A DNA stretch of 55,190 nucleotides. Source: Dehalococcoidia bacterium. Lineage in GTDB: Bacteria > Chloroflexota > Dehalococcoidia > Bin125. Below the pieces are notes generated by a model. The model was given only the letters and a program-made list of their open reading frames with translations, had not been told where the DNA came from and did no database searches. The DNA lies in assembly GCA_963555985.3 (NCBI GenBank), contig CAUVXV020000009.1:1-55190 (forward strand). The letters are read 5' to 3'. Position numbers and translations under genes: made by a program. Of this stretch, positions 1 to 35,361 are shown piece by piece; the first letter of the stretch is position 1; each line of letters begins with the position of its first letter.

Positions 1-269
1 TCGAAATCCGATCACCCTCCCAGTCGCCCGAAAATCAGCAAGAGCGCATGGAACTCTGGATGAGCTACGGCGTCCGCCTGGGCTGGCTGATCGATCCATT
101 CGAAGAAGCCGTCTGGATCTATCGCCCCGACCGCGAACCGGAGCGCCTCGACCGTCCCGCAACACTCAGCGGCGAAGACGTAATGGTCGGCTTGGAGGTG
201 GAGATGTCGGAAATCTGGGCATTGGTAGACGAAAGCAAGGCGCGCGGCGCTGACCAGGAGCGGCAATGA
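1..269 (+). CDS. Uma2 (DUF820) family endonuclease #1, 5'-truncated by window edge
   Basis: Frame open from base 3 reads EIRSPSQS...MELWMSYGVRLGWLIDPFEE...LSGEDVMVGLEVEMSEIW, the Uma2 C-terminal half. Confidence 0.9.
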   Translation, partial: EIRSPSQSPENQQERMELWMSYGVRLGWLIDPFEEAVWIYRPDREPERLDRPATLSGEDVMVGLEVEMSEIWALVDESKARGADQERQ

Positions 270-961
270 GCACCGCCCAGGCAAGTCCCATTGAAGAAAC
301 CGTTGCCGATCCACTGCTCGTCGCGCCCGAACTGCGCGACGTCTGCCTGCGCATCCAGTTGCCCGCCCCTCCCACCGACGAGGAACTGGAGCGGCTCAAT
401 CAGCTCAACGAAGGCTGGAAGATCGAACTCGGAGCGGATTGTGAACTGGAGGTGCGGATGATTGCTGGAGGCGATAGCTCAGACATCAGCGGCGAGTTGG
501 TGCGTCAAGTTGGCAACTGGCGCGCCGAGCGCGGAGGCGGGCGCGTCCGCGACCCGGACGGCACCTACAAGGTCTATCATCCCGACTTGGGCAGCAAGAC
601 GCGCGCGCCGGATGTCTCCTGGATCAGCCCGGCGCTGCTGGAATCGACGCCCAGCGCCGCTCGACCCAAGCGAGGCTTCTGGAGCCTCTGCCCCACCTTC
701 GTGATCGAGGTGCGGTCGCCGTCCGATTCGCTCTCGGCGCAGCAGCAACGAGTGCAAGAGTGGCTGCTCTTCGGCGCTCAACTCGGCTGGCTCGTCGACC
801 CGCTTGAGCAAACGGTCTGGATTTACCGACCGAATCAAGAACCTGAACAGATGGAACGCCCCACCACCCTCTCAGGCGAATCCGTGCTCGAAGGCCTGAC
901 CGTAGATCTGACCGAAGTCTGGGCCTTCGCCGGCGACGACGCAGGCTCGACGACAGGGTAA
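266..961 (+). CDS. Uma2 family endonuclease #2
   Basis: RAPDVSWI, CPTFVIEVRSPSD and GAQLGWLVDP motifs; start overlaps the stop of #1 (ATGA). Confidence 0.92.
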   Translation: MSTAQASPIEETVADPLLVAPELRDVCLRIQLPAPPTDEELERLNQLNEGWKIELGADCELEVRMIAGGDSSDISGELVRQVGNWRAERGGGRVRDPDGTYKVYHPDLGSKTRAPDVSWISPALLESTPSAARPKRGFWSLCPTFVIEVRSPSDSLSAQQQRVQEWLLFGAQLGWLVDPLEQTVWIYRPNQEPEQMERPTTLSGESVLEGLTVDLTEVWAFAGDDAGSTTG

Positions 962-975
962 AGGAGCGATCCGCG

Positions 976-2880
976 ATGTCTTCACGAATCATCCAGCCAC
1001 CGCTGGCAGAACTCGGCCGCTTGCCTACTCCACTCAGCGACGGTGAGTCGCTCGCGGTCAACTTTTTCCATGACCACCTACCAGACGGCTGGGAGATATA
1101 CGTCCAGCCCTTTCTCAATGGCAGCAGACCTGACCTCGTGTTGTTCAACCCCGAATGTGGCGTTGCAGTGTTCGAAGTGAAGCACTGGGATTTCGACTCC
1201 AAGGAGTACTACATCGACCGTATGGGCGGCAAACCGCAGCTCGCTGCCAGGGAGCATGGTGGTCGGCGTATACAGGTAGACGAGCGGATGAGAAATCCAT
1301 GCGCACAGGTTGAGAGCTACCGACAACAGATTCTAAAGCTGTATTGTCCGAGACTCCGAAAGAACTTCCGAGACGCAGCGAGCCAGCCTGTGACGGCCGG
1401 GTTGATCATAACCAGCGCGACGACTCAGCGCGTGCGTAGCTTGTTCGATCCGTTGCGAGATGGTGCGACGTTGTGCCAGCAGGAGCTCTTTCCGATCGCC
1501 GGGTTCAACGATCTTCGCCCTGAGCGCATAGCGGAGGTCTTCCCGTTGTATCAGGAGCCCGCGAGCCAACCCATGGGCGCTGACCTAGCCGAGGATTTGC
1601 GGGGTTGGTTGCGGGAACCGGCCTTTAGCCAGGAACAGCGCAATCCACCCGAGCTAGACGCGATTCAACGCAGGGTCGCGACCACGCGGACCAACACTGG
1701 CTTCCGCCGCGTCAAGGGGCCGGCAGGTTCCGGTAAGTCCGTCGCGCTTGCCGCGCGCGCTGCCGAACTGGCGGACACAGGCAAGCGAGTACTGGTTTGC
1801 TCGTACAACATCACGCTCCGGAACTACTTGCGCGACCTCACCCGGCAGTATGCCAGAACTTCGGGTAAGCAACGTCCGGAGATCGAGTTTGTCAACTTTC
1901 ACTCATGGTGCCAGCGGATTTGTGCTGACGCCGGTAGGAACGAAGAGCTGAAGAGACTTCGCAGTCAGCATTCACGCGACGAGCTCTTTGACGAGATCAT
2001 GCCAAACGTGGTGGAATCTCTGTTGAGTGCTCCGGCGCGACCTAATGAGTTACCCCGATACGATGCCATTTTGGTCGACGAAGGCCAGGACTTTCGGCTC
2101 AACTGGTGGAGCGCCTTGCGCGCTGCTCTGATTGAGGGCGGTGAAATGCTCTTGGTTGCGGACAAAACGCAGAACGTCTTCGGGACCGCTAAGGCTTGGA
2201 CCGAGGGAGCAATGCCAGGCTCAGGGTTCCCTGGAGGTGAATGGATGACGCTTGAGCGCAGTTACCGCCTGCCGCCCAAGATGATTCACCACCTAAGCGC
2301 CTACGCCGATGAGTTCTTGGTCGGCGAAGACGTGGACATTCCCGTGATCGAGCAAGCCGAACCCGATATGTATCCCGTATCACTTAACTGGATACAGACT
2401 GATCCGCGTCAGGCGGTCGACGCCAGCGTCGAAGCCGTTCTCGATCAATTGCGGGGTCTTCAGTCTCAAGCCGCCGCCGCCGACGTGATCTTCCTCGGCG
2501 GCAGGCAAGTTGGCGTAGAGGTTGTAAAGGCGCTTGAGCGCCTCAATATCCGCGTGCGGCACACATTCGATGACAGTGGGGAACAGGGTCGAGAGCGTAA
2601 GATGAAGCGACAGTTCTTCCAAGGAGCGGAACGCGTCAAGGCAACCACACTGCATAGCTTCAAAGGCTGGGAAGCCGTGCAACTCGTGGTCCATGTGCGC
2701 ACTGTCAGGTCAAAGGAAGACCGTGCAGCGCTGTATGCGGCGCTGACGAGACTGAAGCGCCGACCGGAGGGCAGCGCCCTGACCGTTGTCTGTTCTACGG
2801 CCGATCTGGCCGACTACGGTCGCACGTGGCCCAGCTTCAAGGAAACTGCGGTCAAGATGCCTATAGCTTGGCCAGATTAA
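976..2880 (+). CDS. NERD nuclease / superfamily-1 (UvrD-like) helicase fusion
   Basis: N-terminal RPDLVLFNP...VFEVK (PD-(D/E)xK-like NERD); Walker A GPAGSGKS; Walker B LVDEGQD; SYRLP, HSFKGWE and YAALTR SF1 motifs. Confidence 0.88.
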   Translation: MSSRIIQPPLAELGRLPTPLSDGESLAVNFFHDHLPDGWEIYVQPFLNGSRPDLVLFNPECGVAVFEVKHWDFDSKEYYIDRMGGKPQLAAREHGGRRIQVDERMRNPCAQVESYRQQILKLYCPRLRKNFRDAASQPVTAGLIITSATTQRVRSLFDPLRDGATLCQQELFPIAGFNDLRPERIAEVFPLYQEPASQPMGADLAEDLRGWLREPAFSQEQRNPPELDAIQRRVATTRTNTGFRRVKGPAGSGKSVALAARAAELADTGKRVLVCSYNITLRNYLRDLTRQYARTSGKQRPEIEFVNFHSWCQRICADAGRNEELKRLRSQHSRDELFDEIMPNVVESLLSAPARPNELPRYDAILVDEGQDFRLNWWSALRAALIEGGEMLLVADKTQNVFGTAKAWTEGAMPGSGFPGGEWMTLERSYRLPPKMIHHLSAYADEFLVGEDVDIPVIEQAEPDMYPVSLNWIQTDPRQAVDASVEAVLDQLRGLQSQAAAADVIFLGGRQVGVEVVKALERLNIRVRHTFDDSGEQGRERKMKRQFFQGAERVKATTLHSFKGWEAVQLVVHVRTVRSKEDRAALYAALTRLKRRPEGSALTVVCSTADLADYGRTWPSFKETAVKMPIAWPD

Positions 2881-2954
2881 TGATGCTGCCGGCGCTCCGT
2901 CGGATGCACCGTCTGCTCCACCGCCCGCTGACCGTTCGGATACACCCAGTCGTG
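2881..2954. repeat. 74-bp direct repeat, copy A (stranded copy of the nuoI 3' end)
   Basis: Identical by eye to 3698-3771; similarity extends with changes to about 2877-2966. Confidence 0.95.
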
Positions 2955-2990
2955 CCGAGATACTCGATGACCGCCGAGAGCGCCCGCCGA

Positions 2991-2996
2991 TAGACT
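2991..2996 (+). promoter_or_regulatory. Putative -10 box TAGACT for Uma2 #3
   Basis: TAnnnT hexamer followed by a GGGAGG RBS and the ATG at 3023. Confidence 0.5.
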
Positions 2997-3022
2997 GTCC
3001 CCAACGGGAGGACGGCACGCCA

Positions 3023-3697
3023 ATGCCTCAGACCGCAACGATGCCCGCGCCGACGGCGCATGAGCTGCCTGCGGTACCCGCGCTGATTCGGATTCCGCCT
3101 CCGATCAACGGTGCATTCGACGATGACCTCCAGCAGCGCCTCGACGCCGACCATCCAGGCTGGCGCTTCGAGGTCGGCTGCGATGGGGAGTTGGTGATCA
3201 ACATGGGCTCGGGCGGCGTCACCTCGGACATCGAGTTGGAACTCGCACGCTATCTCGGAGTCTGGCGGGCAACTGGCGGCGGCGGGCGCGCGCGAACCTC
3301 CAGCGGCGGCTACTGGTTGGGCGGCCGTCCGCAAGAGCCGCCCCGCATGGAACCCGACCTCTCCTGGATCAGCCCCGAGCGCTACGACAGACTGCCTGCC
3401 GAGCATCGAGGAGGCAGCGGCTATTGGACCGTTTGCCCCGATTTCGTAGTCGAGATCAAATCGCCCTCCGATGATGTCGCCAAGCAGCAGGACCGGATGG
3501 CGCTCTGGATACACTTCGGCGCGCGCCTCGGCTGGCTGATTGATCCGGACGCGCTGACTGTCTGGGTGTACTGCCCGGCGCTTGACCCGGAACTGCTGGA
3601 ACGCCCTGCAACCCTATCCGGTGAGGACGTATTAGACGGGTTGACCGTGGACATGACCTACGTCTGGCAGTTGGCTGAGGAAGCGCGGCGGCCCTAG
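3023..3697 (+). CDS. Uma2 family endonuclease #3
   Basis: MEPDLSWI, CPDFVVEIKSPSD and GARLGWLIDP motifs; stop overlaps the nuoI stop in CTAG. Confidence 0.92.
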   Translation: MPQTATMPAPTAHELPAVPALIRIPPPINGAFDDDLQQRLDADHPGWRFEVGCDGELVINMGSGGVTSDIELELARYLGVWRATGGGGRARTSSGGYWLGGRPQEPPRMEPDLSWISPERYDRLPAEHRGGSGYWTVCPDFVVEIKSPSDDVAKQQDRMALWIHFGARLGWLIDPDALTVWVYCPALDPELLERPATLSGEDVLDGLTVDMTYVWQLAEEARRP

Positions 3698-4179
3698 TGA
3701 TGCTGCCGGCGCTCCGTCGGATGCACCGTCTGCTCCACCGCCCGCTGACCGTTCGGATACACCCAGTCGTGACCTTCGAGGTACTCGTTCGCCAACTCGA
3801 TCAGGTCGTCCTTGTCCTTGTACAGCCGATTCGGGTTCGTCACCACGTTCGTGTACGAGCCGCCCACCTGGATCGCCTCGTAGGGACACGCCTCCGCGCA
3901 CAGACCGCAGTACATGCACAGCCGAAAATCGATCTCGTAGCGGTTGACGAGGAAGCTCCCGTCCTCGCGCGGCTCCGTCTCCACCAGAATGCAGCCGTCG
4001 GGACAGCTCTGCGCGCAGGTTGAGCAGCCCGTGCAGCGCTCCACGAACCAGACCAGATTCGTCCGCGCGCGCGGAGGGATGTCCCGCTCCTGCTCCGGAA
4101 ATTCGACCGTCACCGGCTCCTTGCGGACATGCTTGACCACCGTCAGCAGACCCTTGGCGATACCCTTGCCGAACACCAT
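3694..4179 (-). CDS. nuoI: NADH-quinone oxidoreductase subunit I
   Basis: VTVEFPE start; two CxxCxxCxxxCP ferredoxin motifs; YEIDFRLCMYCGLCAEACP. Confidence 0.93.
   Translation of the reverse strand: MVFGKGIAKGLLTVVKHVRKEPVTVEFPEQERDIPPRARTNLVWFVERCTGCSTCAQSCPDGCILVETEPREDGSFLVNRYEIDFRLCMYCGLCAEACPYEAIQVGGSYTNVVTNPNRLYKDKDDLIELANEYLEGHDWVYPNGQRAVEQTVHPTERRQHH
3698..3771. repeat. 74-bp direct repeat, copy B (within the nuoI 3' end)
   Basis: Identical to 2881-2954. Confidence 0.95.
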
Positions 4180-4217
4180 CTCGCGCCCCTCTCCGCTCTC
4201 CTCGGCTCCGCAACAGA

Positions 4218-4925
4218 CTAGCGGCTGCTGAAGAAGTTCTCGTCGTAGGGCAGCGCCCCCGTGCGCCGGTCGCGCGGCTGACCGTCCGCCGTCAGATACG
4301 GCGGGAACAACGACTCCAGCTCCGCCCGAATCGGATCGCCCTCAGGCAGCATCCGCGAGAAGTCGCCCGTCGGCTCCGGCCGCCGCCGCCGACCGCCGTG
4401 CTCGTGCTCCTCGTCGATCACCTGCTGCAACAGCATCAGCCCCGCCAGCAGCGACTCCGGCCGCGGTGGACAGCCCGGCACGTACACGTCCACCGGCACG
4501 ACGTTGTTCACCCCGGGCAGCGTCGAGTACCCATGCGCGAACGGCCCCCCGATGTTCGAGCACGACCCCATCGAGATCACCCACTTCGGCTCCGCCATCT
4601 GCAAGTAGATCCGCCGCACCGGCGGAGCCATCTTCCAGGTCACCGTCCCCGCCACGATCATCAGATCCGCCTGCCGCGGCGACGCCCGGAACACCTCCGC
4701 CCCGAAGCGCGCCAGGTCATAACGCGCGTTCGCCGTCGCAATCATCTCAATCGCGCAGCACGCCAGCCCGAACATCGCCGGCCACAGCGAAGACCGCCGC
4801 GCCCAGCCAAACACCTTGTCCACCGTCGAGACCAGCAACTGCGAACGCAGCTCGTCCTCGACATCCGTCACCGGGTCAAGCAGCGGAATCGGTGCTCCCC
4901 CGGTATCAATCGTGCGCTGGACCAT
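4218..4925 (-). CDS. nuoB: NADH-quinone oxidoreductase subunit B
   Basis: [29 protein letters not shown] and [10 protein letters not shown] motifs; start placed at MVQRT (4925). Confidence 0.95.
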
Positions 4926-4980
4926 GAGCCCTCCGAACCGTCCGCCCAAGCGGCCTCCAAAGGATACACGACGCCCAATC

Positions 4981-5036
4981 CCCGCTCCCCCCGCACTGCG
5001 GGGGGAGATGTCCCGTTGGGACAGAGGGGGGTGCCC
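4981..5036. repeat. REP-like palindrome (CTCCCCCCGCA-C-TGCGGGGGGAG ... GACAGAGGGGG)
   Basis: Hairpin with related copies at ~8800-8849, 11857-12020 and 36730-36767. Confidence 0.8.
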
Positions 5037-5044
5037 GCCAACCT

Positions 5045-5077
5045 CTTGCCAAGCCGCCCAGCCCATGCGAACGTATG
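5045..5077 (+). promoter_or_regulatory. Conserved element upstream of methyltransferase 1
   Basis: CTTGCCAAGCCGCCCAGCCCATGCGAACGTATG aligns to 12022-12055 with 5 mismatches and 1 indel; contains a TTGCCA -35-like hexamer. Confidence 0.6.
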
Positions 5078-5091
5078 CCCAAGGACACCCC

Positions 5092-6222
5092 ATGCCCAGA
5101 CTCAACGTCGACAACCGCACCATCTTCACCCGCGACAACCTCGACATACTCCGAGGCATCAACAGCGAGTGCATCGATCTGATCTACCTCGATCCCCCCT
5201 TCAACACCGGCAAGCACTGGCAAGCTCCGCTCGATTCCGGCGCCGTCGGCGCCGTCTTCGACGACATCTGGACGCTGGACGACATGAAAGAGGAGTGGGT
5301 CGCCCAGATCGAAGCCTCCGATCCCGCGATCTGGGCTGTCGTCACCGCCGCCGGACGAGCCTACGGCGAGTCGATGCAGGCCTATCTCACCTTCATCTGC
5401 GTCCGCCTCCTCGAACTGCACCGCGTGCTCAAGCCCACCGGCTCCCTCTACCTCCACTGCGACCCCACCGCCAGCCACTACCTCAAAGCCCTGCTCGATG
5501 CGATCTTCGGCAAGCAAGCCTTCCGCAACGAGGTCATCTGGGGCTACCGCGGTATGCCCTCCAAAGCCAGGAAATGGCAAGCCAAGCACGACGTCCTCCT
5601 CTTCTACGCGCGCGGCGACGACAACACCTTCAACGTCCAGCGCGGCGACTTCACCGAAGGCACCAAGCGCACCTACGAGAGCGCCAGGCGGCGCGGCTAC
5701 AACGCCAACCACAGCCGCAACATGGTCACCATCTTCGACGAACGGAAATACCGCCAGGCCGTCGCCGACGGCAAGATTCCCGCCGGAATGCGCGAGTCCC
5801 GCTACTCCGCCCAAGGCCCGCCCCTGCGCGACTGGTGGGACGACATCCGCATCCTCGGAGGCCCCGGCAACAAGGAGCGGGTCGGCTACCCCACCCAAAA
5901 GCCGCTCGCCCTGCTCGAGCGCATCATCGCCGCATCCTCCAACGAGGGCGACGTCGTCCTCGATCCCTTCTGCGGCTGCGCCACTACCTGCATCGCCGCC
6001 GAGAAACTCAATCGCCAGTGGATCGGTATCGACACCTCAGCCGCCACCTGGCCACTCCTCAACCAACGCATGACCGAAACCCCCGGCCTCAGCCGTTTCC
6101 ACGCCCACCACCGCACCGACCTACCCACCCGCACCGACCAGCTCACGCATTTCCCGATCTCTCACACCCCTCCCCAACTCGCTATCAATCAACCCAGAAC
6201 AGAGGAGCAATCAACCTCATGA
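5092..6222 (+). CDS. Site-specific DNA methyltransferase (N6/N4, beta order), lacking the HNH tail
   Basis: [16 protein letters not shown] and [10 protein letters not shown] motifs; ends shortly after the RTDLPTRTD linker. Confidence 0.9.
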
Positions 6223-6235
6223 AGCCCTGCCCGCG

Positions 6236-6295
6236 TGTTCCCGGGTTCGCCCAAAGAAAAAACTTCCCTGAACAAACCCGAACACCACCGCAATC
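6236..6295. repeat. Dispersed element fragment including 28-bp repeat copy A (6268-6295)
   Basis: TTCCCGGG..CGCCCAAAGAAAAAAC resembles 15182-15210; CTGAACAAACCCGAACACCACCGCAATC matches 7030-7057 at 27/28. Confidence 0.8.
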
Positions 6296-6932
6296 AGCGC
6301 CACACCCGACTCAAATCCACATCCAACCCCGGCAACACTTCCGCATCCCCGATCCGCATCGGACGCGCCAATTCCTCCGGTTCCTGCCCCGCTCGATACA
6401 CCCATAAACGCTCCTCAAACGGATCGATCAGCCACCCCAGACGCGCGCCGTTGGCGATCCACAACTCCATCTTCTCCCGTTGCTCCGACGGGTCGTCGCT
6501 ACGCGACTGGATCTCAATCACCAGATCGGGCGTGACTCGCCAGACGCCCTCATCGTCTTCGTCCACTTCGGACAATCGCTCCGGGCTCAGCCAGGCGATA
6601 TCGGGCGCGCGCCGATTGCCGTCGGGCAGGCGAAAGAGCGAACTGGCATCGAAGATGTCGCCGCCCGCTCCGGCGCCCGCCCAATTCTGAAGTTGGGTGC
6701 CGATCAGCATCCCTCGCCGCCCGCTCAAGGTGCCTGCCGGAGCCATAATCAGGAGCGCTCCTTCCGCGTCGGACTCGAAACGCCAGGTTTCGTTCCGCGC
6801 CCCGATCTCCAGCAGCAGGTCATCGCTTAGCGCCATCCCCTCAGGCATCACGAGCCGCAGGCAGCCGATGAACGTCGCCTCGTTCGTCGGGATCGTCGGC
6901 GTGGGAGCGGGCTGTACGGCGACTTCAGGCAT
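6294..6932 (-). CDS. Uma2 family endonuclease #4
   Basis: RRAPDIAWL, TPDLVIEIQS and GARLGWLIDP motifs. Confidence 0.92.
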   Translation of the reverse strand: MPEVAVQPAPTPTIPTNEATFIGCLRLVMPEGMALSDDLLLEIGARNETWRFESDAEGALLIMAPAGTLSGRRGMLIGTQLQNWAGAGAGGDIFDASSLFRLPDGNRRAPDIAWLSPERLSEVDEDDEGVWRVTPDLVIEIQSRSDDPSEQREKMELWIANGARLGWLIDPFEERLWVYRAGQEPEELARPMRIGDAEVLPGLDVDLSRVWR

Positions 6933-7029
6933 CGTTCGGCTCGCGGAGGTGATCGTGGCTGCTGTCGGCTGGCGCTCAGTTTAGCGAAGGGGCGCAAAAC
7001 CGCCCCACCTCCGGATAAGCCAAAGGTTG

Positions 7030-7057
7030 CTGAACCAACCCGAACACCACCGCAATC
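7030..7057. repeat. 28-bp direct repeat copy B
   Basis: CTGAACCAACCCGAACACCACCGCAATC; abuts the stop of Uma2 #5. Confidence 0.85.
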
Positions 7058-7695
7058 TACTCCGGACGCCAGATCCGCCGCAGATCCACCACCATCCCCG
7101 GCAACACCTCGTCGTCCGACATCTCCTGCGGGCGCTCCAACATCACCGCCTCGGCCCCCGGCCGATACACCCACACCCGCCGATCGAACGGATCCACCAG
7201 CCAGCCCAGCCGCACGCCATTGCGCAACCACAGCTCCATCTTCTGCTGCAAATCCTCGATATCGTCGGTCAGCGAGCGAACCTCCACAATGAAGTCCGGC
7301 GTCACGCTCCATACGTTGCCGTCGAAGATGTCGATTCCCTGGAGCCGCTCGCCGCTGACCCAGGCTGCATCGGGCACTCGTCGGCTCCCGTCCGGCAAGC
7401 CGAAGAGCGCGTCTGAGCCAAAGGCCAAGTCGCCCGCTTCCACGCTCATCCAATGGTGCAGCGCAACAGCGAACTCAAGACTGATCCAAGAGCTGGTCTG
7501 ACCACTCGGCAAGCCCACGATCAACGCCCCCGTCTCGTCCACCTCGAACGGCACGGCATCGTTCAGGCTGCAAAGCTCAAGTAGTTTCTCGTTGGTCAAC
7601 ACCCAATCGGGCGGCAGTCTGAGTTTCAGCGGCGCGCTGCCAAGAGCCGCGAGCAGCGCGGTGACATCTTCAGCCTCGGGTCGTGCGACAACCAT
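7057..7695 (-). CDS. Uma2 family endonuclease #5
   Basis: RRVPDAAWV, TPDFIVEVRS and GVRLGWLVDP motifs; TATGAT lies 6 nt before the ATG. Confidence 0.92.
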   Translation of the reverse strand: MVVARPEAEDVTALLAALGSAPLKLRLPPDWVLTNEKLLELCSLNDAVPFEVDETGALIVGLPSGQTSSWISLEFAVALHHWMSVEAGDLAFGSDALFGLPDGSRRVPDAAWVSGERLQGIDIFDGNVWSVTPDFIVEVRSLTDDIEDLQQKMELWLRNGVRLGWLVDPFDRRVWVYRPGAEAVMLERPQEMSDDEVLPGMVVDLRRIWRPE

Positions 7696-7785
7696 GTCGG
7701 CATCATATCCCGGCGAACTGCGGCAGAAGCTTGAACTGTCCCAAGCCCGCTACTCTAATCTCACCCGAACAGGAGACCCCCACCC

Positions 7786-8109
7786 ATGCCCGATATCACC
7801 TTCGCCTGCACCATGCAGGAGGGACAAATCCCCCAAGACACCCGTGACCAACTCGCCTGGGCCCTCGCCGGCGTCGCCAAAGAAGTCGCCGACCTCGACC
7901 TCGCCGGCGAAGTCCGCTTCACCGACATCCCCCAGGGCTTCGGCTTCCGCGGAGGCGAACTCTCCACCACCTCCCTCGTCCGCGGCGCCGTCCCCGGCGG
8001 CATCGATCAGGATACCCGCGTCGCTCTCATGACCCGCATCTGCGAGGTCTGGAGCGAAATCTCCGGCGCCACCATCGACGAACTGGTCGTCAGCGTCGCC
8101 GACGCCTAG
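7786..8109 (+). CDS. Tautomerase superfamily protein (short, divergent)
   Basis: Met-Pro start, AGGAG RBS and a beta-alpha-beta repeat pattern similar to the adjacent gene. Confidence 0.65.
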   Translation: MPDITFACTMQEGQIPQDTRDQLAWALAGVAKEVADLDLAGEVRFTDIPQGFGFRGGELSTTSLVRGAVPGGIDQDTRVALMTRICEVWSEISGATIDELVVSVADA

Positions 8110-8154
8110 ACTGTCCCCAACCGCCGCCGCCCGGCGCAAGAATCTGGAGCCCAC

Positions 8155-8568
8155 ATGCCCTTCTACCGCTGCGTCGTCCCCAAAGACTCGGTTCCCTACG
8201 AAACCCGCAAGGCCGTCGCCCTTGCCTTCACCGACGTTCACTGCGGCGCCACCAACGCTCCCCGCTCCTTCGTCCACGTCGTCTTCAACGAGTACGACGA
8301 GTCCCCCTGGGACGCCCCCTACTTCATCGACGGCGGCAACCGCGCCGGTCGCCCCCAGTCCAAGAAGGACGAGCTCCTCGAAGGCCTCCAGGCCGCCTTC
8401 GCCCACCACACCGGCATCCCCCGCGACCAGATCAGCGGCCGCATCACCGAAGGCCCTGCCAGTTGGTCGATGGAAGGCGGCATGGTCCTGCCCGAACCCG
8501 GCGAAGAAACCGCCGAGTGGTACGAGCACGACCAACGCATCGCCGACGCAGCCGCCGCCGGCGGCTAA
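8155..8568 (+). CDS. cis-CaaD-like tautomerase family protein
   Basis: Pro1, TDVH, FVHVVF, RAGR and MEGG match the cis-3-chloroacrylate dehalogenase-like pattern. Confidence 0.8.
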   Translation: MPFYRCVVPKDSVPYETRKAVALAFTDVHCGATNAPRSFVHVVFNEYDESPWDAPYFIDGGNRAGRPQSKKDELLEGLQAAFAHHTGIPRDQISGRITEGPASWSMEGGMVLPEPGEETAEWYEHDQRIADAAAAGG

Positions 8569-8596
8569 GCTCCCCCAACCGCCGCTTAGGCCGATC

Positions 8597-8849
8597 CTCT
8601 CCCCTCGCACTGCGGAGAGATGCTGCGCAGGAGACCCTTGCAGAACTCCCATTTCCGTCATTCCCGCGTAGGCGGGAATCCATACAGCGCATCGAGTGGG
8701 ATATAGATTCCCATTTTCGCGGGAGTGACGAAACGCGCAGATCGGCGAGTTGTGCAAAAGCCTGCCTCTGCGTACGCAGTAGGTCTATGCAGTAAGTTCC
8801 CTTCTCCCCTCTTGCGGGGGGAGATGCCGAAGGCAGAGGAGGGGTGCCC
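8597..8849. repeat. Cluster of REP-like palindromes
   Basis: CCGTCATTCCCGCGTAGGCGGGAATCC (8655-8681), an inverted degenerate partner near 8705-8730, and CTCCCCTCTTGCGGGGGAG...GCAGAGG near 8804-8845. Confidence 0.8.
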
Positions 8850-9950
8850 GTGACCACCCTCACCCCCGCCGAAGCCCGCAAACTCCGCTTCGCCGCCCAA
8901 GGCCTCAGCGGAACCCCCGCCGCGAACGCCCTGGACGCAACCCGAGCCAGCGCCGCAATCCAATCCCAAGATCGCCTCGGAGAACTCCTCGCCGTCCGAG
9001 TCCGCTCTGACGAACTCACCACCGAAGACCTCCGCCAAGCCCGCCTCCACGACCGTACCCTCGTCCGAACCTGGCTTCACCGCGGCACCCTCCACACCGT
9101 CCCCGGTACCGACCTCCGCTGGCTGCTCGAGTTGCTCGGCGCGGAAATGGACGCCAAAGCCCTCAAGCGCCGCGCCGACCTCGGTATCATCCCCGACGAC
9201 CACGCCTGCTCCATGCAGGCCATGCGCCGCCTCCTCGGCGAACGCGGACCACTCACCCGCCACCAGATCATCGACCACTTCCGCGAACAAGACCTGCCCC
9301 ACGAAGGCCAGGCCGTCCCTCACCTGCTCCGCTCCGCCTCCCTCAACGGACACATCTGCTTCGGCCCCGAAATCGGCGGCGAAGCCGCCCACGTCCTGAT
9401 CGACGACTGGCTCACCGAACCGGACAACCAGCCCGCTAATCCCGCCGCGAGACTCGCCGAAATCTTCTACCGCGCCTACGCACCCGCCACCCCCGCCGAT
9501 TTCCGCTGGTGGAGCGGACTCCCCGCCGTTGCCGCTCGCGCTGCCCACCAAGCCGTCGCCGACCAACTCACTGAAGTAGACGTCGACGGACGCCCCATGT
9601 GGATCCCCGCATCAACCGCTAACCAACTCGCCGACACCCTGACCCAACCCGAATCCGTTCGTCTGCTTGGTCCCTTCGACCCCTACATCCTCGGCTACGC
9701 CAAACGCGACCTCGGCGTTCCCGAAACCCAGCTCAAGCAAGTCAACGCCGGCGGCGGCATGATCCGCCCCACCATCATCGCCGACGGAACCCTGATCGGA
9801 ACCTGGCAATACCGCTCCACCAAAACCCGCGTCAACATCACCCTCCGACCCTTCGCCGACCTCAACGACCACGCCCAAACAGCAATCGAGCAAGAAATCG
9901 ACGACATCGCCCGCTATCTCAACCTGAACGCCCGCTGGTCAACCGCCTAG
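8850..9950 (+). CDS. AlkZ-like winged-helix DNA glycosylase (HTH_42 family)
   Basis: QSQ motif, RTWLHRGTLH, PATPADFRWWSGL, LLGPFDPYILGY and GTW motifs. Confidence 0.88.
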   Translation: MTTLTPAEARKLRFAAQGLSGTPAANALDATRASAAIQSQDRLGELLAVRVRSDELTTEDLRQARLHDRTLVRTWLHRGTLHTVPGTDLRWLLELLGAEMDAKALKRRADLGIIPDDHACSMQAMRRLLGERGPLTRHQIIDHFREQDLPHEGQAVPHLLRSASLNGHICFGPEIGGEAAHVLIDDWLTEPDNQPANPAARLAEIFYRAYAPATPADFRWWSGLPAVAARAAHQAVADQLTEVDVDGRPMWIPASTANQLADTLTQPESVRLLGPFDPYILGYAKRDLGVPETQLKQVNAGGGMIRPTIIADGTLIGTWQYRSTKTRVNITLRPFADLNDHAQTAIEQEIDDIARYLNLNARWSTA

Positions 9951-10597
9951 CTCTCCCGCGACGGCCACACCCGCGATAAATCGATCGCCAAATCGCCCGA
10001 TATCTCCTCCGCAACCAGCGAGAGCGGACGCTCAATCCGTTCCGCCGCCCGCCCCGGCCGGTACACCCACACCGCCTCCTCCCGAGGATCCACCAACCAA
10101 CCCAACCGCGCCCCCTGCGACACCCACATCTCCATCTTCGCCTGCAACACGTCCAGATCGTCAGTCGCCGACCGCACCTCAATGACGAAGTCCGGACAGA
10201 CCCGCCAGATGATGCGCTCGTCGCCCGCGATCGCCGCCAGCCGCTCGTCGCTAATCCAGGCGGCGTCCGGTGCCCGCCGCCAGCCGTTCGGTAACTGGAA
10301 CATTGAGGAGCCAAAGGCGCGCCCTCGATCGCTCGAGTGTCGCCATTGGCGAATCTGCGAACCGATCTCAAGCTCCCGCTCACCGCTCTCCGGACCAGGT
10401 GGCGCCATGATCAGCAGCCCTCCCTCGCAATCGGCCTCCAGATACCACTCCTCGTTCAGCGACCCCAACTCCAACAACCGCTCGTCCGTCAGCTCCCACT
10501 CCGGCGGCAGCTGCAACCGCAGCGGATACCCCGGCACCTCGGCCGCCGACGCCGCTTCCGCCCCAGGCGCATCCGGCGTCTGAGTCTCAGTCACCAC
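9947..10597 (-). CDS. Uma2 family endonuclease #6
   Basis: RRAPDAAWI, CPDFVIEVRS and GARLGWLVDP motifs; stop overlaps the AlkZ-like stop in CTAG. Confidence 0.92.
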   Translation of the reverse strand: MVTETQTPDAPGAEAASAAEVPGYPLRLQLPPEWELTDERLLELGSLNEEWYLEADCEGGLLIMAPPGPESGERELEIGSQIRQWRHSSDRGRAFGSSMFQLPNGWRRAPDAAWISDERLAAIAGDERIIWRVCPDFVIEVRSATDDLDVLQAKMEMWVSQGARLGWLVDPREEAVWVYRPGRAAERIERPLSLVAEEISGDLAIDLSRVWPSRES

Positions 10598-10621
10598 GTC
10601 GATCCCCCAATCGCGCGAACA

Positions 10622-11785
10622 TTACACCGGCGACAACGCCCGCAACCGCCCCACGATCTCAGGTACCGCCCCAGCCAACCGCTCCACCTGCTCCAACGTA
10701 TTGCTCTGACCCAGACTCAACCGCACCGCCGAGTGCGCCGTATCGGGATCCACCCCGATCGCCGTCAACACATGACTCGGCTCCGTGCTCCCCGTCGAAC
10801 AAGCGCTCCCGCTCGACGCCGCAAACCCCTCCATATCCAGCTGCAACAAAATCGACTCACCCTCCACCCCCGCAAAACACACATGCAAATTATTCGGCAG
10901 CCGCCGCTCCCAATCCGCCGGACCATTCAGCCGCAGCGGACTCACCCGCTCCCGCAACTCCCGCCACAACGCATCCCGCAACTCCCGCACATGCGCCGTC
11001 CGCTCCGACCGCTCGGCTTCCGCCAACCGCAGCGCCGTCGCCAGACCCACCGCCTGCGCCACCGACTCCGTACCCGCGCGCCGCTCCTCCTCCTGACCCC
11101 CGCCCAGCAAGATCGGCTCCAACGCCGTCCGCCGCCGCACATACAGCGCCCCAGACCCCTTCGGCCCGTAAATCTTGTGCGCCGTCAGCGACATCAGGTC
11201 CACCCCCAACACGTCCGGACGGATATCCACCGCACCCGCCGCCTGCACCGCGTCCGTATGCACCAGCGTCCGCCGATTCCGGGCCTTCACCGCCGCTGCA
11301 ATCTCCGCAATCGGCTGCACCGTCCCAATCTCGTTGTTCGCCGTCATCACCGACACCAAAATCGTGTCCTCACGCACCGCCGCCGCCGCCTCATCGGGAT
11401 CCACGAACCCCTCCCCGTCCACTGGCAGCACCGTCAACTCAAACCCCTCCCGCTCCAACGCCTCCAACGGATGCAGCACCGCATGATGCTCAATCGCCGA
11501 CGTGATCAAATGCCGCCCCGCAAACCCACGCGCCAGCGCAACCCCCCGAATCGCCGCATTATCCGACTCCGTCCCCCCGCTCGTCAGCACTACCTCACTC
11601 GGAGAACACCCCAACACCCCCGCAATCTCATCCCGAGCCCCGTCCAATATCCCCCGAGCAAACTGAGCCTCCCGATAAATCCCCGAAGGATTCCCCCAAC
11701 CCCGCTCCAAAACCGGCACCATCGCCTCCAACACCCGCCCGTCAAGCGGAGTCGTCGCCGCATGGTCAAAATAAGCCCGCTCCAT
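10622..11785 (-). CDS. iscS: Cysteine desulfurase (IscS/NifS type)
   Basis: YFDHAATTP, SGGTESDN, HTDAVQ, AHKIYGPKG and SSGSACS motifs. Confidence 0.93.
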   Translation of the reverse strand: MERAYFDHAATTPLDGRVLEAMVPVLERGWGNPSGIYREAQFARGILDGARDEIAGVLGCSPSEVVLTSGGTESDNAAIRGVALARGFAGRHLITSAIEHHAVLHPLEALEREGFELTVLPVDGEGFVDPDEAAAAVREDTILVSVMTANNEIGTVQPIAEIAAAVKARNRRTLVHTDAVQAAGAVDIRPDVLGVDLMSLTAHKIYGPKGSGALYVRRRTALEPILLGGGQEEERRAGTESVAQAVGLATALRLAEAERSERTAHVRELRDALWRELRERVSPLRLNGPADWERRLPNNLHVCFAGVEGESILLQLDMEGFAASSGSACSTGSTEPSHVLTAIGVDPDTAHSAVRLSLGQSNTLEQVERLAGAVPEIVGRLRALSPV

Positions 11786-11824
11786 ACCCACAGCCTAACG
11801 CCTCCGCCATCCCCCCGCCCCCTT

Positions 11825-12020
11825 CCGTCATTCCCGCGCACGCGGGAATCCATTCCCCTCTCCCCCCGCAGTGCGGGGGAGAAGTCGCGCAGCGACAGAG
11901 GGGGGTCCGCCCAGCCCCGCCAAAGAAATTCCGCCATGCCCGCTCCCCTCTCCCCCCTCTGCGGGGGGAGATGTCACGTAGAGCCTGCCCCCGCGCACGC
12001 GGGGGACAGGGGGGACTCCC
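11825..12020. repeat. Composite cluster of REP-like palindromes
   Basis: CCGTCATTCCCGCGCACGCGGGAATCC followed by two CTCCCCCC..TGCGGGGG-AG hairpins with GACAG(A/G)GGGGG tails. Confidence 0.85.
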
Positions 12021-12021
12021 C

Positions 12022-12055
12022 CTTGCCAAACCACCCCAACCCACGCGAACATATG
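12022..12055 (+). promoter_or_regulatory. Conserved element upstream of methyltransferase 2
   Basis: Homologous to 5045-5077. Confidence 0.6.
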
Positions 12056-12059
12056 AAGC

Positions 12060-13349
12060 ATGACCACCCCCAACTTCACCAACCGAACCCTCTTCCACGG
12101 CGACAACCTCCCCTTCCTCAAAGGCCTCAACTCCAACACCATCCACCTCATAGCCACCGACCCGCCCTTCAACAAAGGCCGCGACTTCCACGCCACCCCC
12201 GACAGTCTCGCCGCCGGCGCCAAGTTCGAAGACCGCTGGAGCTGGGACAAAGACGTTCACCAAGACTGGGTCGACGCCATCCAGGACGACTGGCCCGCCG
12301 TCTGGCAGGTGATCGAAGCCGCCCGCGCCGCCGCCGGCGAGGACATGGCCGCCTATCTCTGCTGGTTGGGCGTGCGCCTGCTGGAGATGCATCGGGTGCT
12401 GCGGGAGGACGGCAGCATCTATCTGCACATCGACCACACCGCATCGGCCTACGTGAAGGCGCTGATGGACGCCATCTTCGAGCGCAAGAATTTCCGCAAT
12501 GAGATCGCATGGTGCTACACCGGCCCGCAACGAGCGTTGCGGCATTTCCCGCGTAAGCACGACACAATCCTCTTCTACTCCTACCCGGACGCGACGTTCA
12601 ATAGAGACGCCGTTCGCGTGCCGTCGAAGTGGAATGAGCTAGGCGGCTTCAGTGATCCGGAGGTTGAACGAAAGAATCGGGGCAAGGTGCCCGAAGATTG
12701 GTGGCATATGACCTTTGGTCCAAATACACGCGAGCGTGTCGGTTATCCGACACAGAAACCGCTTGCTCTCTATGAGCGGATCATCAAAGCCTCATCGAAC
12801 GAGGGCGACATGGTCCTCGACCCATTCTGCGGTTGCGCGACGACCCCAGTTGCAGCCGAGCGGCTCGGCAGGCAGTGGATCGGTATGGACATCTGGGAGC
12901 AGGCGCACCGGACAGTTATTGACCGCTTGCAGAAGGAAAACCTTGCCGCCCTGGACGGCGACAGCGGAGGCCAGCTCATCACCTTCGGACAGATCGGCTA
13001 CAGCACTGTCGCCCCCGTTCGCACCGACGACAAAGCTGTAGCCGCGCCGCCGCTCAAGCTCAAAGTGCAGATCGCCGAACCGCCCGGCCCCAAGATGACC
13101 CGTGCTGAAATGGTGGACTTCCTGATCCTCCAACACGGGATGATCTGCCGAGGCTGCGATCGCCAGTTCGACGATCCGCTCTACCTCGAACTTGACCATA
13201 ACACGCCCCGCTCAGACGGCGGCCTGAACCACATCAGCAACCGCCTCCTCCTCTGCGGCCCCTGCAACCGCATCAAGAGCAACACCCTCACCCTCAGCGG
13301 CCTCCGCAAAGAAAACGCCAAACGCGGCCGCATGGCCGACGAGATCTAA
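12060..13349 (+). CDS. DNA methyltransferase (beta order) fused to a C-terminal HNH endonuclease
   Basis: TDPPFN, YPTQKP and DPFCGCATT motifs; CRGC...ELDHNTP...NHISN...CGPCNRIK HNH zinc finger. Confidence 0.92.
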   Translation: MTTPNFTNRTLFHGDNLPFLKGLNSNTIHLIATDPPFNKGRDFHATPDSLAAGAKFEDRWSWDKDVHQDWVDAIQDDWPAVWQVIEAARAAAGEDMAAYLCWLGVRLLEMHRVLREDGSIYLHIDHTASAYVKALMDAIFERKNFRNEIAWCYTGPQRALRHFPRKHDTILFYSYPDATFNRDAVRVPSKWNELGGFSDPEVERKNRGKVPEDWWHMTFGPNTRERVGYPTQKPLALYERIIKASSNEGDMVLDPFCGCATTPVAAERLGRQWIGMDIWEQAHRTVIDRLQKENLAALDGDSGGQLITFGQIGYSTVAPVRTDDKAVAAPPLKLKVQIAEPPGPKMTRAEMVDFLILQHGMICRGCDRQFDDPLYLELDHNTPRSDGGLNHISNRLLLCGPCNRIKSNTLTLSGLRKENAKRGRMADEI

Positions 13350-13352
13350 GAT

Positions 13353-14192
13353 TCATGTTGACTCAATCGCGTATTGAAATGTGAGCCTATGCCGATCGCC
13401 GCCACTCCTATCGTTGTCTATGGAGATGACCTCGATACGCGCATGACGCCCGTGAATGTTGCGAAGCACCGCAAATCTCCCAATGCCTACTGTACGCACT
13501 CGAGACGTATAGTTGAGTGATGCATCATCAAATTCGTCGGTAATGTCACCAGCAGTGTCGTCCAATGCGACGCCGTTAATCGATGGCGGATCATTATACA
13601 AGTAGATTTCTGTATCACCACATTGGGTCCAAGCAGTCTCGAACTCCATCGTGCCGTAGCCGATTGTGAATCGCCCGTTGTGGTCGCTGTAGTAGAAGGA
13701 AACCTCCTCAGCCAGCGATGTTACGCGGGGCGCTGGAACATCAGATGCCTTTCCACTGAGCGGCGTCACTCCCAATTTGCTCATGATCACGGCCGCTAGT
13801 TCATCCGGCCCGTACTGGTTTGCGTCGAACCATGCAAGTGAGTCCGGTAAGCCCGGTACTTCAGTGTCATCAAATCGTACAGGTATCACAAGCGCTTGAT
13901 CGTCGTTGACCATCCTGCTGAGAATCGACTTGCGCTCGTATGTCGGCCACGCCTTCTTCACGTAGTTGGCTGAGATAAACATCACAGCGATCGCGTTGCT
14001 TCGCTCGAACACGCGATTGAATTCTACTGTCAGATCGCGTCCTATGAGATACTCTTGCTCGGATCTGTCGTAGAACACAGCGATGCGTTGTGCATGCAAT
14101 CGGCGTGCAACATGTTCCACATAATCGCGTTCTTCCCCTGCGAAGGAAAGTGCAACCTCGAATCGCTTTTCTGAATCGCTTCCGCTGCTCAT
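13353..14192 (-). CDS. TIR domain protein with an uncharacterised C-terminal domain
   Basis: FEVALSFAGEER, VFYD, FISANYVKKAWPTYER and IPVRFDD TIR motifs; visibly lower GC than its neighbours. Confidence 0.88.
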   Translation of the reverse strand: MSSGSDSEKRFEVALSFAGEERDYVEHVARRLHAQRIAVFYDRSEQEYLIGRDLTVEFNRVFERSNAIAVMFISANYVKKAWPTYERKSILSRMVNDDQALVIPVRFDDTEVPGLPDSLAWFDANQYGPDELAAVIMSKLGVTPLSGKASDVPAPRVTSLAEEVSFYYSDHNGRFTIGYGTMEFETAWTQCGDTEIYLYNDPPSINGVALDDTAGDITDEFDDASLNYTSRVRTVGIGRFAVLRNIHGRHARIEVISIDNDRSGGDRHRLTFQYAIEST

Positions 14193-14247
14193 GCTTTTCC
14201 AATCTTTCCGGCTTGCCTAAGCCCTAAGACGATTCCAACTGTGCATT

Positions 14248-14607
14248 CTACGCCAGATCGTCCAACTTCCCCACCAGCCGCTCGACGTGCCCCAGGTAAA
14301 GCTCGACATCCTCTGCTGGTAGCCGCGCCTCGTAGAAGTTCATGTGCAGGCTCTCCGCGAGACCGAATTGTTCGCTCAATTCGTCATCGCCGGTTTCCTC
14401 GACAAGCTGCCGCAGGATGCGCCGCAAGAGGTAGTGCCCATTGTGGTCCAGCCCCCGCGACTCCGCCACCGCCTTCACCGCCAGCGCCGCCGCCCCCCAA
14501 CCCTTCTCCGACGCTTGCGTCAAATCCTCCTCCGCCAGATGCACCCACGCCTTGCGCAGATACCCCGCGCTCAACTCGCTGTAGTGGCTGGTCCGCGCAG
14601 TCGTCAT
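14248..14607 (-). CDS. PaREP1 family (HEPN-like) protein
   Basis: DLTQASEKGWGAAALAVKA and AESLHMNFYE signatures. Confidence 0.85.
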   Translation of the reverse strand: MTTARTSHYSELSAGYLRKAWVHLAEEDLTQASEKGWGAAALAVKAVAESRGLDHNGHYLLRRILRQLVEETGDDELSEQFGLAESLHMNFYEARLPAEDVELYLGHVERLVGKLDDLA

Positions 14608-14649
14608 GCCGCACAGCCTACCAGTCCGTCGTCGCAGACATACCGGCCG

Positions 14650-14919
14650 CTACCCGAACGCCAGAATGATCGCCGTCCACAACGCAATCGCCGCCAACAG
14701 AATCCAGAGCGCGCACTTCATCCGTTTCGCTAACCGCTCATACATCTCCTCCATCTGGCGCTCCAGTACTTCCGTCGCCAACGCGAACCGCTCAAACGGG
14801 TCATTCTGCAACTGTCGCTCGCGCGCGAGCCGCTCCACCTCAGCCTGGAAATCCGCGACCTGCTGCTCAACGTCGACCGTCGGCCACACCGCCTCTCGCA
14901 ACGCCGCGAAGATCGCCAT
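14650..14919 (-). CDS. Small coiled-coil protein with a C-terminal TM helix
   Basis: E/R/Q-rich helix followed by hydrophobic ALWILLAAIALWTAIILAFG. Confidence 0.6.
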   Translation of the reverse strand: MAIFAALREAVWPTVDVEQQVADFQAEVERLARERQLQNDPFERFALATEVLERQMEEMYERLAKRMKCALWILLAAIALWTAIILAFG

Positions 14920-15080
14920 CGCAACCCTCTTAACCCACCCCTAGCATACCCGCGCCGCCAACCGCCCCAAACCTGCTAAGCTAGAACAAACGCACGCCCA
15001 CCCGGAAACCGCCCAATGCAGACCCGCTCGCCAAGCCCAGAAATGACCCGCACGCCCCCGTCCACGCCCGCACACCGTCG

Positions 15081-35276: not shown

Positions 35277-35361
35277 CCCACTGCGAGACAGCGGCGCACT
35301 GTCGTATCATGCGTGAAACCCGCCGCGAGCGGAGCCGAACCCCCGAGAGGACCCCCTGAAC

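Follow-up and report, generated by a model that had tools for sequence, protein, structure and literature searches.

Uma2 proteins (DUF820 or TT1808; PF05685, COG4636) are predicted endonucleases whose gene context is conserved in cyanobacteria and which elsewhere show signs of mobility (PMC3424549). Single genomes can hold many of them: Thermus thermophilus has 15 Uma2-family paralogues (PMC1274311), and 15-17 are known from some strains of Thermosynechococcus (PMC9403480). The accessible portions of these three papers, from which these statements are taken, give no function or mobility mechanism for the family, and Uma2 mobility is the subject of no title among the 'Uma2' and 'DUF820' literature matches listed. 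Here we describe a 55,190-nt stretch of DNA (the window) from a metagenome-assembled genome (MAG) of a Dehalococcoidia bacterium, in which six Uma2 genes (Uma2#1 to Uma2#6) lie around nuoB- and nuoI-like genes, and in which Uma2#3 is bracketed by a 77-nt direct repeat. An earlier interpretation made from the letters of the DNA (the sequence-only reading) took this repeat, and a 28-nt repeat at Uma2#4, as scars of a Uma2 cassette system that adds single-gene units either by Uma2-initiated, homing-like breaks or by homology-facilitated illegitimate recombination. We find that the 77-nt repeat duplicates the end of the nuoI gene (its 3' end) and that scars of the same type occur at loci without Uma2 genes. 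The best account of the 77-mer, and one that we consider reasonably probable, is that alternative alleles of a strain-variable island were stacked by anchored homology-facilitated illegitimate recombination.

In the orphan immunity arrays of Vibrio type VI secretion systems (T6SS) and in Rhs orphan arrays, the accumulation of genes has been explained by sequential insertion at a conserved anchor, with homology-facilitated illegitimate recombination as the proposed mechanism (available part of PMC5361080). This process has one homologous and one illegitimate end and requires no dedicated recombinase (PMC3240628, in the part available). It is known from experiments in Acinetobacter, Streptococcus, Pseudomonas and E. 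coli, whereas here we infer it from a scar. The Uma2#3 locus resembles the T6SS (Vibrio cholerae), Rhs and contact-dependent inhibition (CDI) orphan arrays, where divergent foreign-strain alleles are stacked at a conserved anchor and leave remnants of the conserved part (PMC5361080, as above): a duplicate of a conserved anchor, with similarity ending at the variable border, brackets divergent DNA. It differs in that the anchor is the 3' end of the convergent, housekeeping-type nuoI gene and not, as there, a toxin gene's constant 5' part, in that only one or two stacking events are apparent, and in that no toxin-immunity relation is known for Uma2. Defence islands offer a second comparison, since the helicase next to the repeat matches a PADLOC model (C3a187), two methyltransferases of the region match PADLOC type II/III models, and gene content varies between co-occurring strains; however, PADLOC recognises no complete known system, and the matches of the five Uma2 proteins scanned to PDC-S03 are weak (E 3e-9 to 6e-5, C-terminal part only). 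Compared with other members of the family, the six window genes pass the family model and keep its PD...E-x-[K/R/Q] signature, but the expansion here is in an uncultured Dehalococcoidia-class lineage and is found mostly in tandem arrays and operon-splitting islands. We view the locus as a natural history of Uma2 accumulation, in which an operon was opened at its junctions, paralogues persist, strains swap alleles, and duplicated gene ends mark the stacking. The driver to which this points is ordinary recombination together with strong allele diversity, not a new mobile-element mechanism, and it suggests that Uma2 genes should be grouped with those of conflict or defence. The value of the comparison is mainly corrective, removing the interpretation as a new cassette system and supplying alleles that can be tested.

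The nuoI end duplicated around Uma2#3

The two copies of the 77-nt repeat are identical at 76 of 77 positions, and the identity stops at the stop codon. Copy 2 comprises the final 25 codons and the stop codon of nuoI, read on the opposite strand, and is thus not an anonymous target sequence. Copy 1, on the far side of Uma2#3, is still joined to the helicase stop and appears from its sequence to be a non-functional duplicate of the nuoI gene end. Because copy 1 agrees with the nuoI tail of the window itself at 77/80 positions and with those of seven other genomes at only 56-66/80, the duplication seems to be recent and to derive from a near-identical nuoI. With a duplicated gene end, a repeat 'starting at the stop codon' is to be expected, as convergent gene pairs overlap by 4 nt at their stops more often than they take any other spacing (29/431, 6.7%). 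The real nuoI end forms such a junction with Uma2#3 (CTAG), and the helicase/copy-1 junction (TTAA) has the 2-nt stop-overlap form that is also seen in a related genome (G018, TTAG).

The window is the entire contig C10 of a 3.33-Mb MAG (11 contigs, 96% completeness, 7.5% contamination), and a second version of the region is present on another contig of the same MAG (C1:1814007-1868865), 98.7% identical over 40.3 kb and 96.8% over 10.4 kb. Read evidence comes from Logan contigs of four runs of one study (X2-X5), a type of contig from which rare variants are dropped. In run X2 the contig depth of the helicase segment is 3-5, compared with about 20-25 for the shared segments, which carry C1's letters, and for this reason C10 is a minor co-occurring strain haplotype and the C1 region the major one; the helicase part is uncovered in X3 and X4 and only thinly and patchily covered in X5, which proves nothing given the loss of rare variants. 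The presence of two haplotypes, the contamination estimate, and the start of C10 inside a Uma2 gene could all be taken to mean that the repeats are metagenome assembly artefacts, such as chimeric joins of two strains, and the sequence-only reading had named assembly joins among the findings that would overturn it. We regard this explanation as barely credible, because both the 77-nt and the 28-nt repeat pairs are present in both haplotype contigs, which were assembled independently, and because Logan contigs bridge the junctions: one from run X2 (record 2) spans helicase/copy-1 and one from run X3 (record 10), a different sample, spans copy-1/leader.

The proposed layout of repeat, leader, Uma2 gene, and repeat at the stop codon holds for both the Uma2#3 and the Uma2#4 units, and the repeats (76/77 and 27/28 identical) are indeed far more similar than the proteins (47% amino acid identity for Uma2#3 and #2, 46% for #4 and #5). 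The '-10 box' assigned to the leaders was not borne out: a sigma-70 scan of positions 1..11000, which leaves other promoter types outside its scope, gave 0 sites where 1.5 are expected from shuffles, and inspection by eye shows no more than a bare TAnnnT hexamer in each leader. No homologue of either leader was found in the fetched relative loci or, the two haplotypes aside, elsewhere in the genome.

Integrative elements typically have direct repeats by which the 3' end of the target gene is restored, and the unit here is a single gene, with 817 bp between the repeats. The 77-mer might then be the att site, rebuilding the nuoI 3' end, of a small integrative element that a site-specific recombinase mobilises in trans, or the unit might be an integron-like cassette, which it resembles in that promoter-poor single-gene units are stacked head to tail at one place. 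Several observations make this very improbable. The statement that there is no visible integrase is upheld, as the genome has only two tyrosine recombinase genes (PF00589), at C1:962692 and C1:1448131; C10 carries neither, and both are at least 407 kb away from the C1 allele. Likewise, no transposase family was found among the region genes scanned, and the genome as a whole was not searched for transposases or serine recombinases. Neither repeat folds like an attC site: as DNA, the two strands of the 77-mer and the 28-mer do no better than shuffles (z = +0.68, +0.36 and +0.51), and unlike cassette-borne sites they consist of a neighbouring gene's end; the 77-mer has no further occurrence elsewhere in the genome. 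A repeat search of the window shows no inverted-repeat pair flanking either unit, as a transposon or insertion sequence (IS) would have, and the duplications are 77 and 28 nt rather than the 2-15 bp of transposon target duplications. The Logan contigs of the four runs, which carry no weight on absence because rare variants are dropped from them, show no join across the 77-mer pair (skip 817) or the 28-mer pair (skip 762), no back-joint indicating a circle, and no same-species empty allele. In one candidate back-joint ('back 665', 731 to 67, run X4) the sides are separated by 39 foreign letters, and it was read as another Uma2 paralogue or organism.

Proposed alternative alleles at an opened operon

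Relatives were retrieved through NuoI and are uncultured Chloroflexota, mostly labelled Dehalococcoidia, among which we compared 47 related nuoI loci; the NuoI-like protein is 73-97% identical in amino acids across them. In distant relatives (L017, L018, L021, L022) the iscS, nuoB, nuoI and nuoG-like genes are contiguous, and among the loci L107-L114 iscS lies directly before nuoB in 8/8 and a nuoG-like gene directly after nuoI in six (L107-L109, L111, L113, L114). In closer genera, variable genes occupy the iscS|nuoB as well as the nuoI|nuoG junction. We conclude that the region is an ancestral compact minus-strand operon, iscS-nuoB-nuoI-nuoG-like, two junctions of which became strain-variable islands in one Dehalococcoidia-class subclade, and that the islands contain diverged Uma2 paralogues together with DNA-modification, repair and defence-type genes (two methyltransferases, the NERD-UvrD helicase, and an AlkZ-like gene). 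In the 47 loci, what comes first after nuoI is a nuoG-like gene in 13, a Uma2 gene on the opposite strand in 10, a NERD helicase in three, a methyltransferase in one, and another open reading frame (ORF) in 19, with nothing called in the last one.

Two of the sites with a helicase, L012/L115 (both from genome G018) and L074, have helicase and nuoI in convergent orientation, their stops overlapping by 4 nt and no gene in between, which is the arrangement expected of an empty site. These helicases are 58% (L012/L115) and 78% (L074) identical in amino acids to the helicase of the window. The sequence-only reading had proposed looking for empty sites, and the arrangement was found in other genera, where a different island history would account for it equally well, and not within the species in the contigs of the four runs.

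All six Uma2 genes of the window were confirmed by PF05685 matches (E 1e-11 to 4.4e-30, 45-105 bits, with a curated cut-off of 27 bits), and alignment supports the claim that their motifs are kept: PD is present in every full-length copy, followed by E-[VI]-x-S, and E148 and S151 are invariant in an alignment of 7 sequences with a mean column identity of 49%. By this signature the proteins are predicted PD-(D/E)xK-fold nucleases. The genes appear to differ in age. Orthologues of Uma2#2 (58-73% amino acid identity) lie beside the nuoG-like gene in other genera, those of Uma2#5 (63-73%) upstream of nuoB at 11/47 related loci, and those of Uma2#6 (60-70%) directly after iscS in other genera; because such same-position orthologues exist, these three genes are old residents. 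In contrast, no orthologue of Uma2#3 or Uma2#4 was found at their sites in the related loci, and in the 47 relatives the Uma2#5 orthologues have no tandem partner at the place of Uma2#4, and by these comparisons Uma2#3 and Uma2#4 look like lineage-specific additions. Uma2#3 is 47-50% identical to Uma2#2 and its C1 counterpart Uma2#2', its closest paralogue in the genome is at 50%, its best match outside its own genome is at 58%, and it reaches at most 58-59% to anything found. For Uma2#4 the closest genome paralogue is at 51% and the best compared match at 54%. No near-identical Uma2 copies are present at separate loci in the genome.

The two haplotypes themselves differ in gene content immediately beside the repeat. 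The NERD helicase of C10 is missing from C1, where Uma2#2' directly abuts copy 1, its stop codon TAG being the first triplet of the repeat, and one boundary between the haplotypes falls exactly at the first base of copy 1. An additional ORF of 571 aa is present only in C1, between Uma2#1 and Uma2#2' (L001:13898-15613, minus strand). The gene-sized differences between C1 and C10 thus concern non-Uma2 genes. Uma2#2 is only 85% (nucleotide) and 87% (amino acid) identical between the haplotypes, and its neighbours are 95-100% identical in amino acids.

The anatomy, the empty-site arrangement, the haplotype differences and the non-Uma2 parallels described below are shown directly; the order of events, the donor allele and the recombination mechanism in the following account are inferred from them. 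The nuoI-nuoG spacer would have existed as two alternative alleles, one with the helicase and one with the leader and Uma2#3 converging on nuoI. DNA of the Uma2#3 allele would have paired homologously inside the resident nuoI, while at its other end an illegitimate joint formed 77 nt inside the tail of that gene, at 2954|2955. Both alleles would then be stacked, with the old nuoI tail persisting as the pseudo-copy that we call copy 1, and the repeat would begin at the stop codon because homology between the alleles ends at the end of the conserved gene. Copy 1 could later have served as a homology anchor for exchange of the segment to its left, giving the difference between C1 and C10. Most Uma2 copies would be old residents derived from local tandem duplication, and gene conversion and deletion between repeats may have contributed.

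Tandem duplication in place is the main rival to such stacking. A unit of leader, Uma2 gene and 3' flank would have been duplicated and have diverged for a long time, with the repeats kept by gene conversion or by selection on a 3' motif. The five relatives examined hold 148 Uma2 matches, and the 30 loci fetched are often tandem arrays with gaps of 9-48 nt; because arrays with 45-89% identical neighbours are so frequent there, tandem duplication appears to be the default way in which the family grows. Neighbours in the window also share branches of a tree of the genome's Uma2 genes, {Uma2#1, #2, #3} and {Uma2#4, #5, #6} falling in two separate branches with other Uma2 genes (support 85-90%, long branches), and a continuous similarity of 72.7% over 297 nt connects the 3' part of Uma2#3 running into copy 2 with the 3' part of Uma2#2' running into copy 1. 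For the 77-mer, however, we think this explanation unlikely. Since Uma2#2 has 58-73% orthologues in other genera and Uma2#3 is only 47-50% identical to Uma2#2, the duplication would predate those genera, yet Uma2#3 is missing from this site in them; a non-coding 77-nt copy of that age should have decayed, and only conversion would hold it at 76/77. The leaders have no mutual similarity, and copy 1 is attached here to the helicase, not to a Uma2 gene. The assertion that old tandem duplication does not explain the repeats is fair for the 77-mer, but in relatives the family nevertheless normally expands by tandem duplication.

Flanking repeats across the genome

The genome has 39 Uma2 matches in 3.3 Mb, 38 of them above the PF05685 cut-off. 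With both strains inside the MAG, gene counts include the window region twice, and setting six haplotype doubles aside leaves 33 distinct loci. Genes were called greedily as ORFs of at least 100 aa with GC3 of at least 0.74, giving 2451 genes and catching 25/39 Uma2 matches. In a test for repeats anchored at the stop codon, 24 Uma2 genes were scored, of which only Uma2#3 (78 and 77 in the two haplotypes) and Uma2#4 (25 for the window copy, 13 for that on C1) are conspicuous, and the maximum among 596 sampled controls is 15. In an unanchored flank test, for which Uma2 ORFs were defined directly from the matches (37/39 covered, the two at the start of the window left out), five Uma2 rows score at least 20: Uma2#3 twice, Uma2#4 twice, and one recent tandem pair. 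Counted by distinct locus this is 3/33 Uma2 and 42/2403 controls. We do not count this nominal enrichment as evidence of a mechanism: one of the Uma2 cases is a recent tandem pair and the control hits are mostly repetitive extragenic palindrome (REP)-like elements or tandem paralogues. The predicted enrichment of stop-anchored repeats was thus seen as a nominal excess over 0/596 controls, but at only 2/33 Uma2 loci.

A scan of the genome that is free of gene calls yielded 44 isolated direct-repeat pairs of at least 22 nt, 250-4000 nt apart. Three of the non-REP loci among these (C1:17394-18844, C1:2765721-2766541 and C1:863987-865152; L035, L036, L037) lack Uma2 genes and share the design seen at Uma2#3, so that this type of scar is not Uma2-specific. 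The 3' end of a beta-lactamase-family gene is duplicated over 136 nt (97%) and brackets paralogues of 119 and 114 aa that are 52% identical; that of a MIP-channel gene is duplicated over 63 nt (92%) and brackets paralogues of 168 and 169 aa that are 53% identical; and that of a SAM-methyltransferase gene is duplicated over 71 nt (100%) beside a 109-aa ORF. At the beta-lactamase gene the similarity breaks off no more than a few bases from the anchor stop, whereas it continues for about 10 nt beyond the stop at the MIP gene and falls about 20 nt short of it at the SAM-methyltransferase gene. REP-like palindromes recur genome-wide and are the source of most of the 'isolated' direct repeats in the scan.

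These results bear directly on mobility driven by Uma2 itself, in which the nuclease would cut near a neighbour's stop codon and repair would copy in a single Uma2 unit, leaving a duplicated target. The genes without positional orthologues, Uma2#3 and Uma2#4, are exactly the two with flanking repeats and alone reach anchored scores of at least 18 (both haplotype copies of Uma2#3, the window copy of Uma2#4); of the named genes at the invaded operon junctions, Uma2 recurs most often, including the position after nuoI at the 10 loci mentioned above; and the catalytic-type motif is intact in all copies. The idea is nonetheless improbable. Homing normally leaves no target duplication, the same scars are present at three loci without Uma2, and 31/33 Uma2 loci of the genome have no such repeats. 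None of the 47 related nuoI loci duplicates the nuoI tail, even though 10 have Uma2 first after nuoI. Active copy-and-paste would leave recent copies, but the closest paralogues of Uma2#3 and Uma2#4 are at 50% and 51%, and the units that differ between haplotypes are non-Uma2 genes. With Uma2#2, #5 and #6 old as well, the homing-like cassette that the sequence-only reading proposed finds no support. Nicking or cutting by Uma2 at compact stop-codon junctions might instead raise local break repair and so stack divergent Uma2 alleles there, a suggestion that we regard as doubtful; if true, it would explain both the recurrent occupancy of the split operon and the flank duplications at only the lineage-specific copies. 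In a milder form, also a conceivable reading by analogy, Uma2 arrays might be conflict-system modules like orphan immunity arrays, in which old alleles are kept after each replacement.

The 28-nt repeat, whose copies abut the stop codons of Uma2#4 and Uma2#5, is identical at 27/28 positions and was not found in any fetched relative locus. Its 17-nt core (TGTTCGGGTTTGTTCAG) occurs at 32 genome sites with at most 2 mismatches, where by our own arithmetic about 0.5 are expected by chance: three sites are in the window (6268-6284, 7030-7046 and 15142-15158) and 29 more on C1, C2 and C8. One lies directly past the stop codon of a Uma2 paralogue at C1:2699208, which, with the dispersal of the core, is consistent with duplication in place. 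Because the core belongs to a dispersed motif family, the 28-mer says little in either direction; it may be a shorter scar of the type seen in the 77-mer or else a retained piece of tandem duplication, and it would have stayed recognisable because it is part of the dispersed genomic motif. The family consists of GTTCRGG-rich repeats, several sites lying inside longer near-identical repeat units, and these repeats are possibly ends of miniature inverted-repeat transposable elements (MITEs), binding sites or terminator-like elements. Indels distinguish the two haplotypes in the spacer that separates Uma2#5 from Uma2#4. Together with the adjoining 28-mer (6933-7057, minus strand) it folds at -29.5 kcal/mol with DNA parameters (z = -2.95, 1/200 shuffles as good) and forms a GGGGCG/CGCCCC hairpin, and the spacer could be a terminator-like or regulatory element.

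For the 77-mer we return to allele stacking by homology-facilitated illegitimate recombination, the option of the sequence-only reading that agrees with the empty-site arrangement, the duplicated anchor 3' end, the lack of a nearby recombinase, and the three non-Uma2 scars. Of the two parental alleles it requires, helicase converging on nuoI is represented in L012/L115 and L074. Several points weigh against it. The other parent and presumed donor, Uma2#3 converging on nuoI without copy 1, was found neither in the collection, in which the genus is represented by this genome only, nor in two metagenome scans (with Uma2#3 peptides and with a 30-nt piece of the nuoI tail), both without a match. 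The polarity may be the reverse, with deletion between the repeats in relatives instead of insertion here, as recombination between the copies would recreate the 'empty' form, and gene conversion from nuoI could keep copy 1 identical. The anchored scores at Uma2#3 and Uma2#4, against none among the controls, are at face value an enrichment at Uma2 genes, and the 11 bases preceding the core of the 28-mer are common only to the local copies (window and C1) at up to 5 mismatches. Finally, three different genes (the helicase, Uma2#2' in C1, and Uma2#3) end exactly on a nuoI-type stop, which is a tidy coincidence for an illegitimate end, although the 6.7% background of overlaps together with recombination inside the repeat can suffice.

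Features and side observations of the region

The features of the region are collected below. The neighbours named by the sequence-only reading (nuoB/nuoI, iscS, methyltransferases and an AlkZ-like gene) were all confirmed by profile matches, and the NERD-UvrD helicase, which it did not name, is added.

Features of the region, in window coordinates
Feature	Position	Strand	Remarks
Uma2#1, C-terminal fragment at contig start	3..269	+	PF05685 E 1e-11; full-length on C1 haplotype
Uma2#2, 231 aa	266..961	+	PF05685 E 2.7e-29; ATG overlaps Uma2#1 stop (ATGA)
NERD + UvrD-type helicase, 634 aa	976..2880	+	Pfam NERD, AAA_19, UvrD-helicase; PADLOC C3a187 'NERD+UvrD' E 1.5e-113
77-mer copy 1, apparent pseudo-copy of nuoI 3' end (antisense)	2878..2954	+	Begins at helicase stop TAA
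Uma2#3 leader, 68 nt	2955..3022	+	GGGAGGA ribosome-binding site; junction 2954|2955
Uma2#3, 224 aa	3023..3697	+	PF05685 E 1.2e-28
NuoI-like 2x[4Fe-4S] ferredoxin subunit	3694..4179	-	Fer4 families; TIGR01971 97 bits, below cut-off
77-mer copy 2, true coding 3' end of nuoI (minus strand)	3695..3771	+	Begins at Uma2#3 stop TAG
NuoB-like subunit	4218..4901	-	PF01058; NF005012 236 bits, above cut-off
N6/N4 DNA methyltransferase, island gene	5104..6222	+	PF01555 E 1.4e-44; PADLOC MTase_II
28-mer copy after Uma2#4 stop	6268..6295	-	Holds dispersed TGTTCGGGTTTGTTCAG motif
Uma2#4, 212 aa	6294..6932	-	PF05685 E 4.4e-30
Spacer/leader between Uma2#5 and Uma2#4	6933..7029	-	GC hairpin; indels between haplotypes
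28-mer copy after Uma2#5 stop	7030..7057	-	Repeat comparison
Uma2#5, 212 aa	7057..7695	-	PF05685 E 8.3e-30
Tautomerase-like genes, two	7786..8109 and 8155..8568	+	PF01361/PF14832 for second only
AlkZ-like DNA glycosylase family gene	8844..9950	+	PF06224 E 1.9e-61; 4-nt overlap with Uma2#6 stop
Uma2#6, 216 aa	9947..10597	-	PF05685 E 1.4e-29; start 25 nt past iscS-like stop
IscS/NifS-like cysteine desulfurase (class-V aminotransferase)	10622..11791	-	PF00266 E 2.2e-71
Methyltransferase-HNH fusion	12060..13349		N6_N4 methyltransferase

Homologues of the tautomerase-like genes lie beside nuoI in L019 and L020, and the AlkZ-like gene is found in the island of many relatives. Three ORFs of 439-447 aa in relatives (L019:3967-5286, L020:17105-18427 and L015:802-2145) score about 284-314 bits against the Uma2 profile and are probably two fused Uma2 domains; the one in L019 abuts the nuoI stop. 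The 571-aa ORF of the C1 haplotype has a hydrophobic N-terminus that resembles a signal peptide by eye, and it matches no family above cut-off (BiPBP_C, at 22.6 bits, is below).

REP-like palindromic elements are located at 4975-5032, 8596-8826 and 11818-11979 of the window, with the forms GGGGGGAGATGTC...GACAGAGGGGGG and ATTCCCGCG...CGCGGGAAT. The methyltransferase-HNH gene and its downstream neighbours (12018-15346) have a paralogous module at C1:2749753-2752786, 77-90% identical in pieces, and positions 13306-14907 are not collinear between the haplotypes and constitute another variable segment. Further along the window, a stretch of about 300 nt (36736-37073) recurs on C1 in more than 40 scattered copies that are 68-80% identical, and an adjacent stretch of 1.3 kb (35359-36641) has 4-5 copies at 71-80%; together they probably represent a repeat or IS family.

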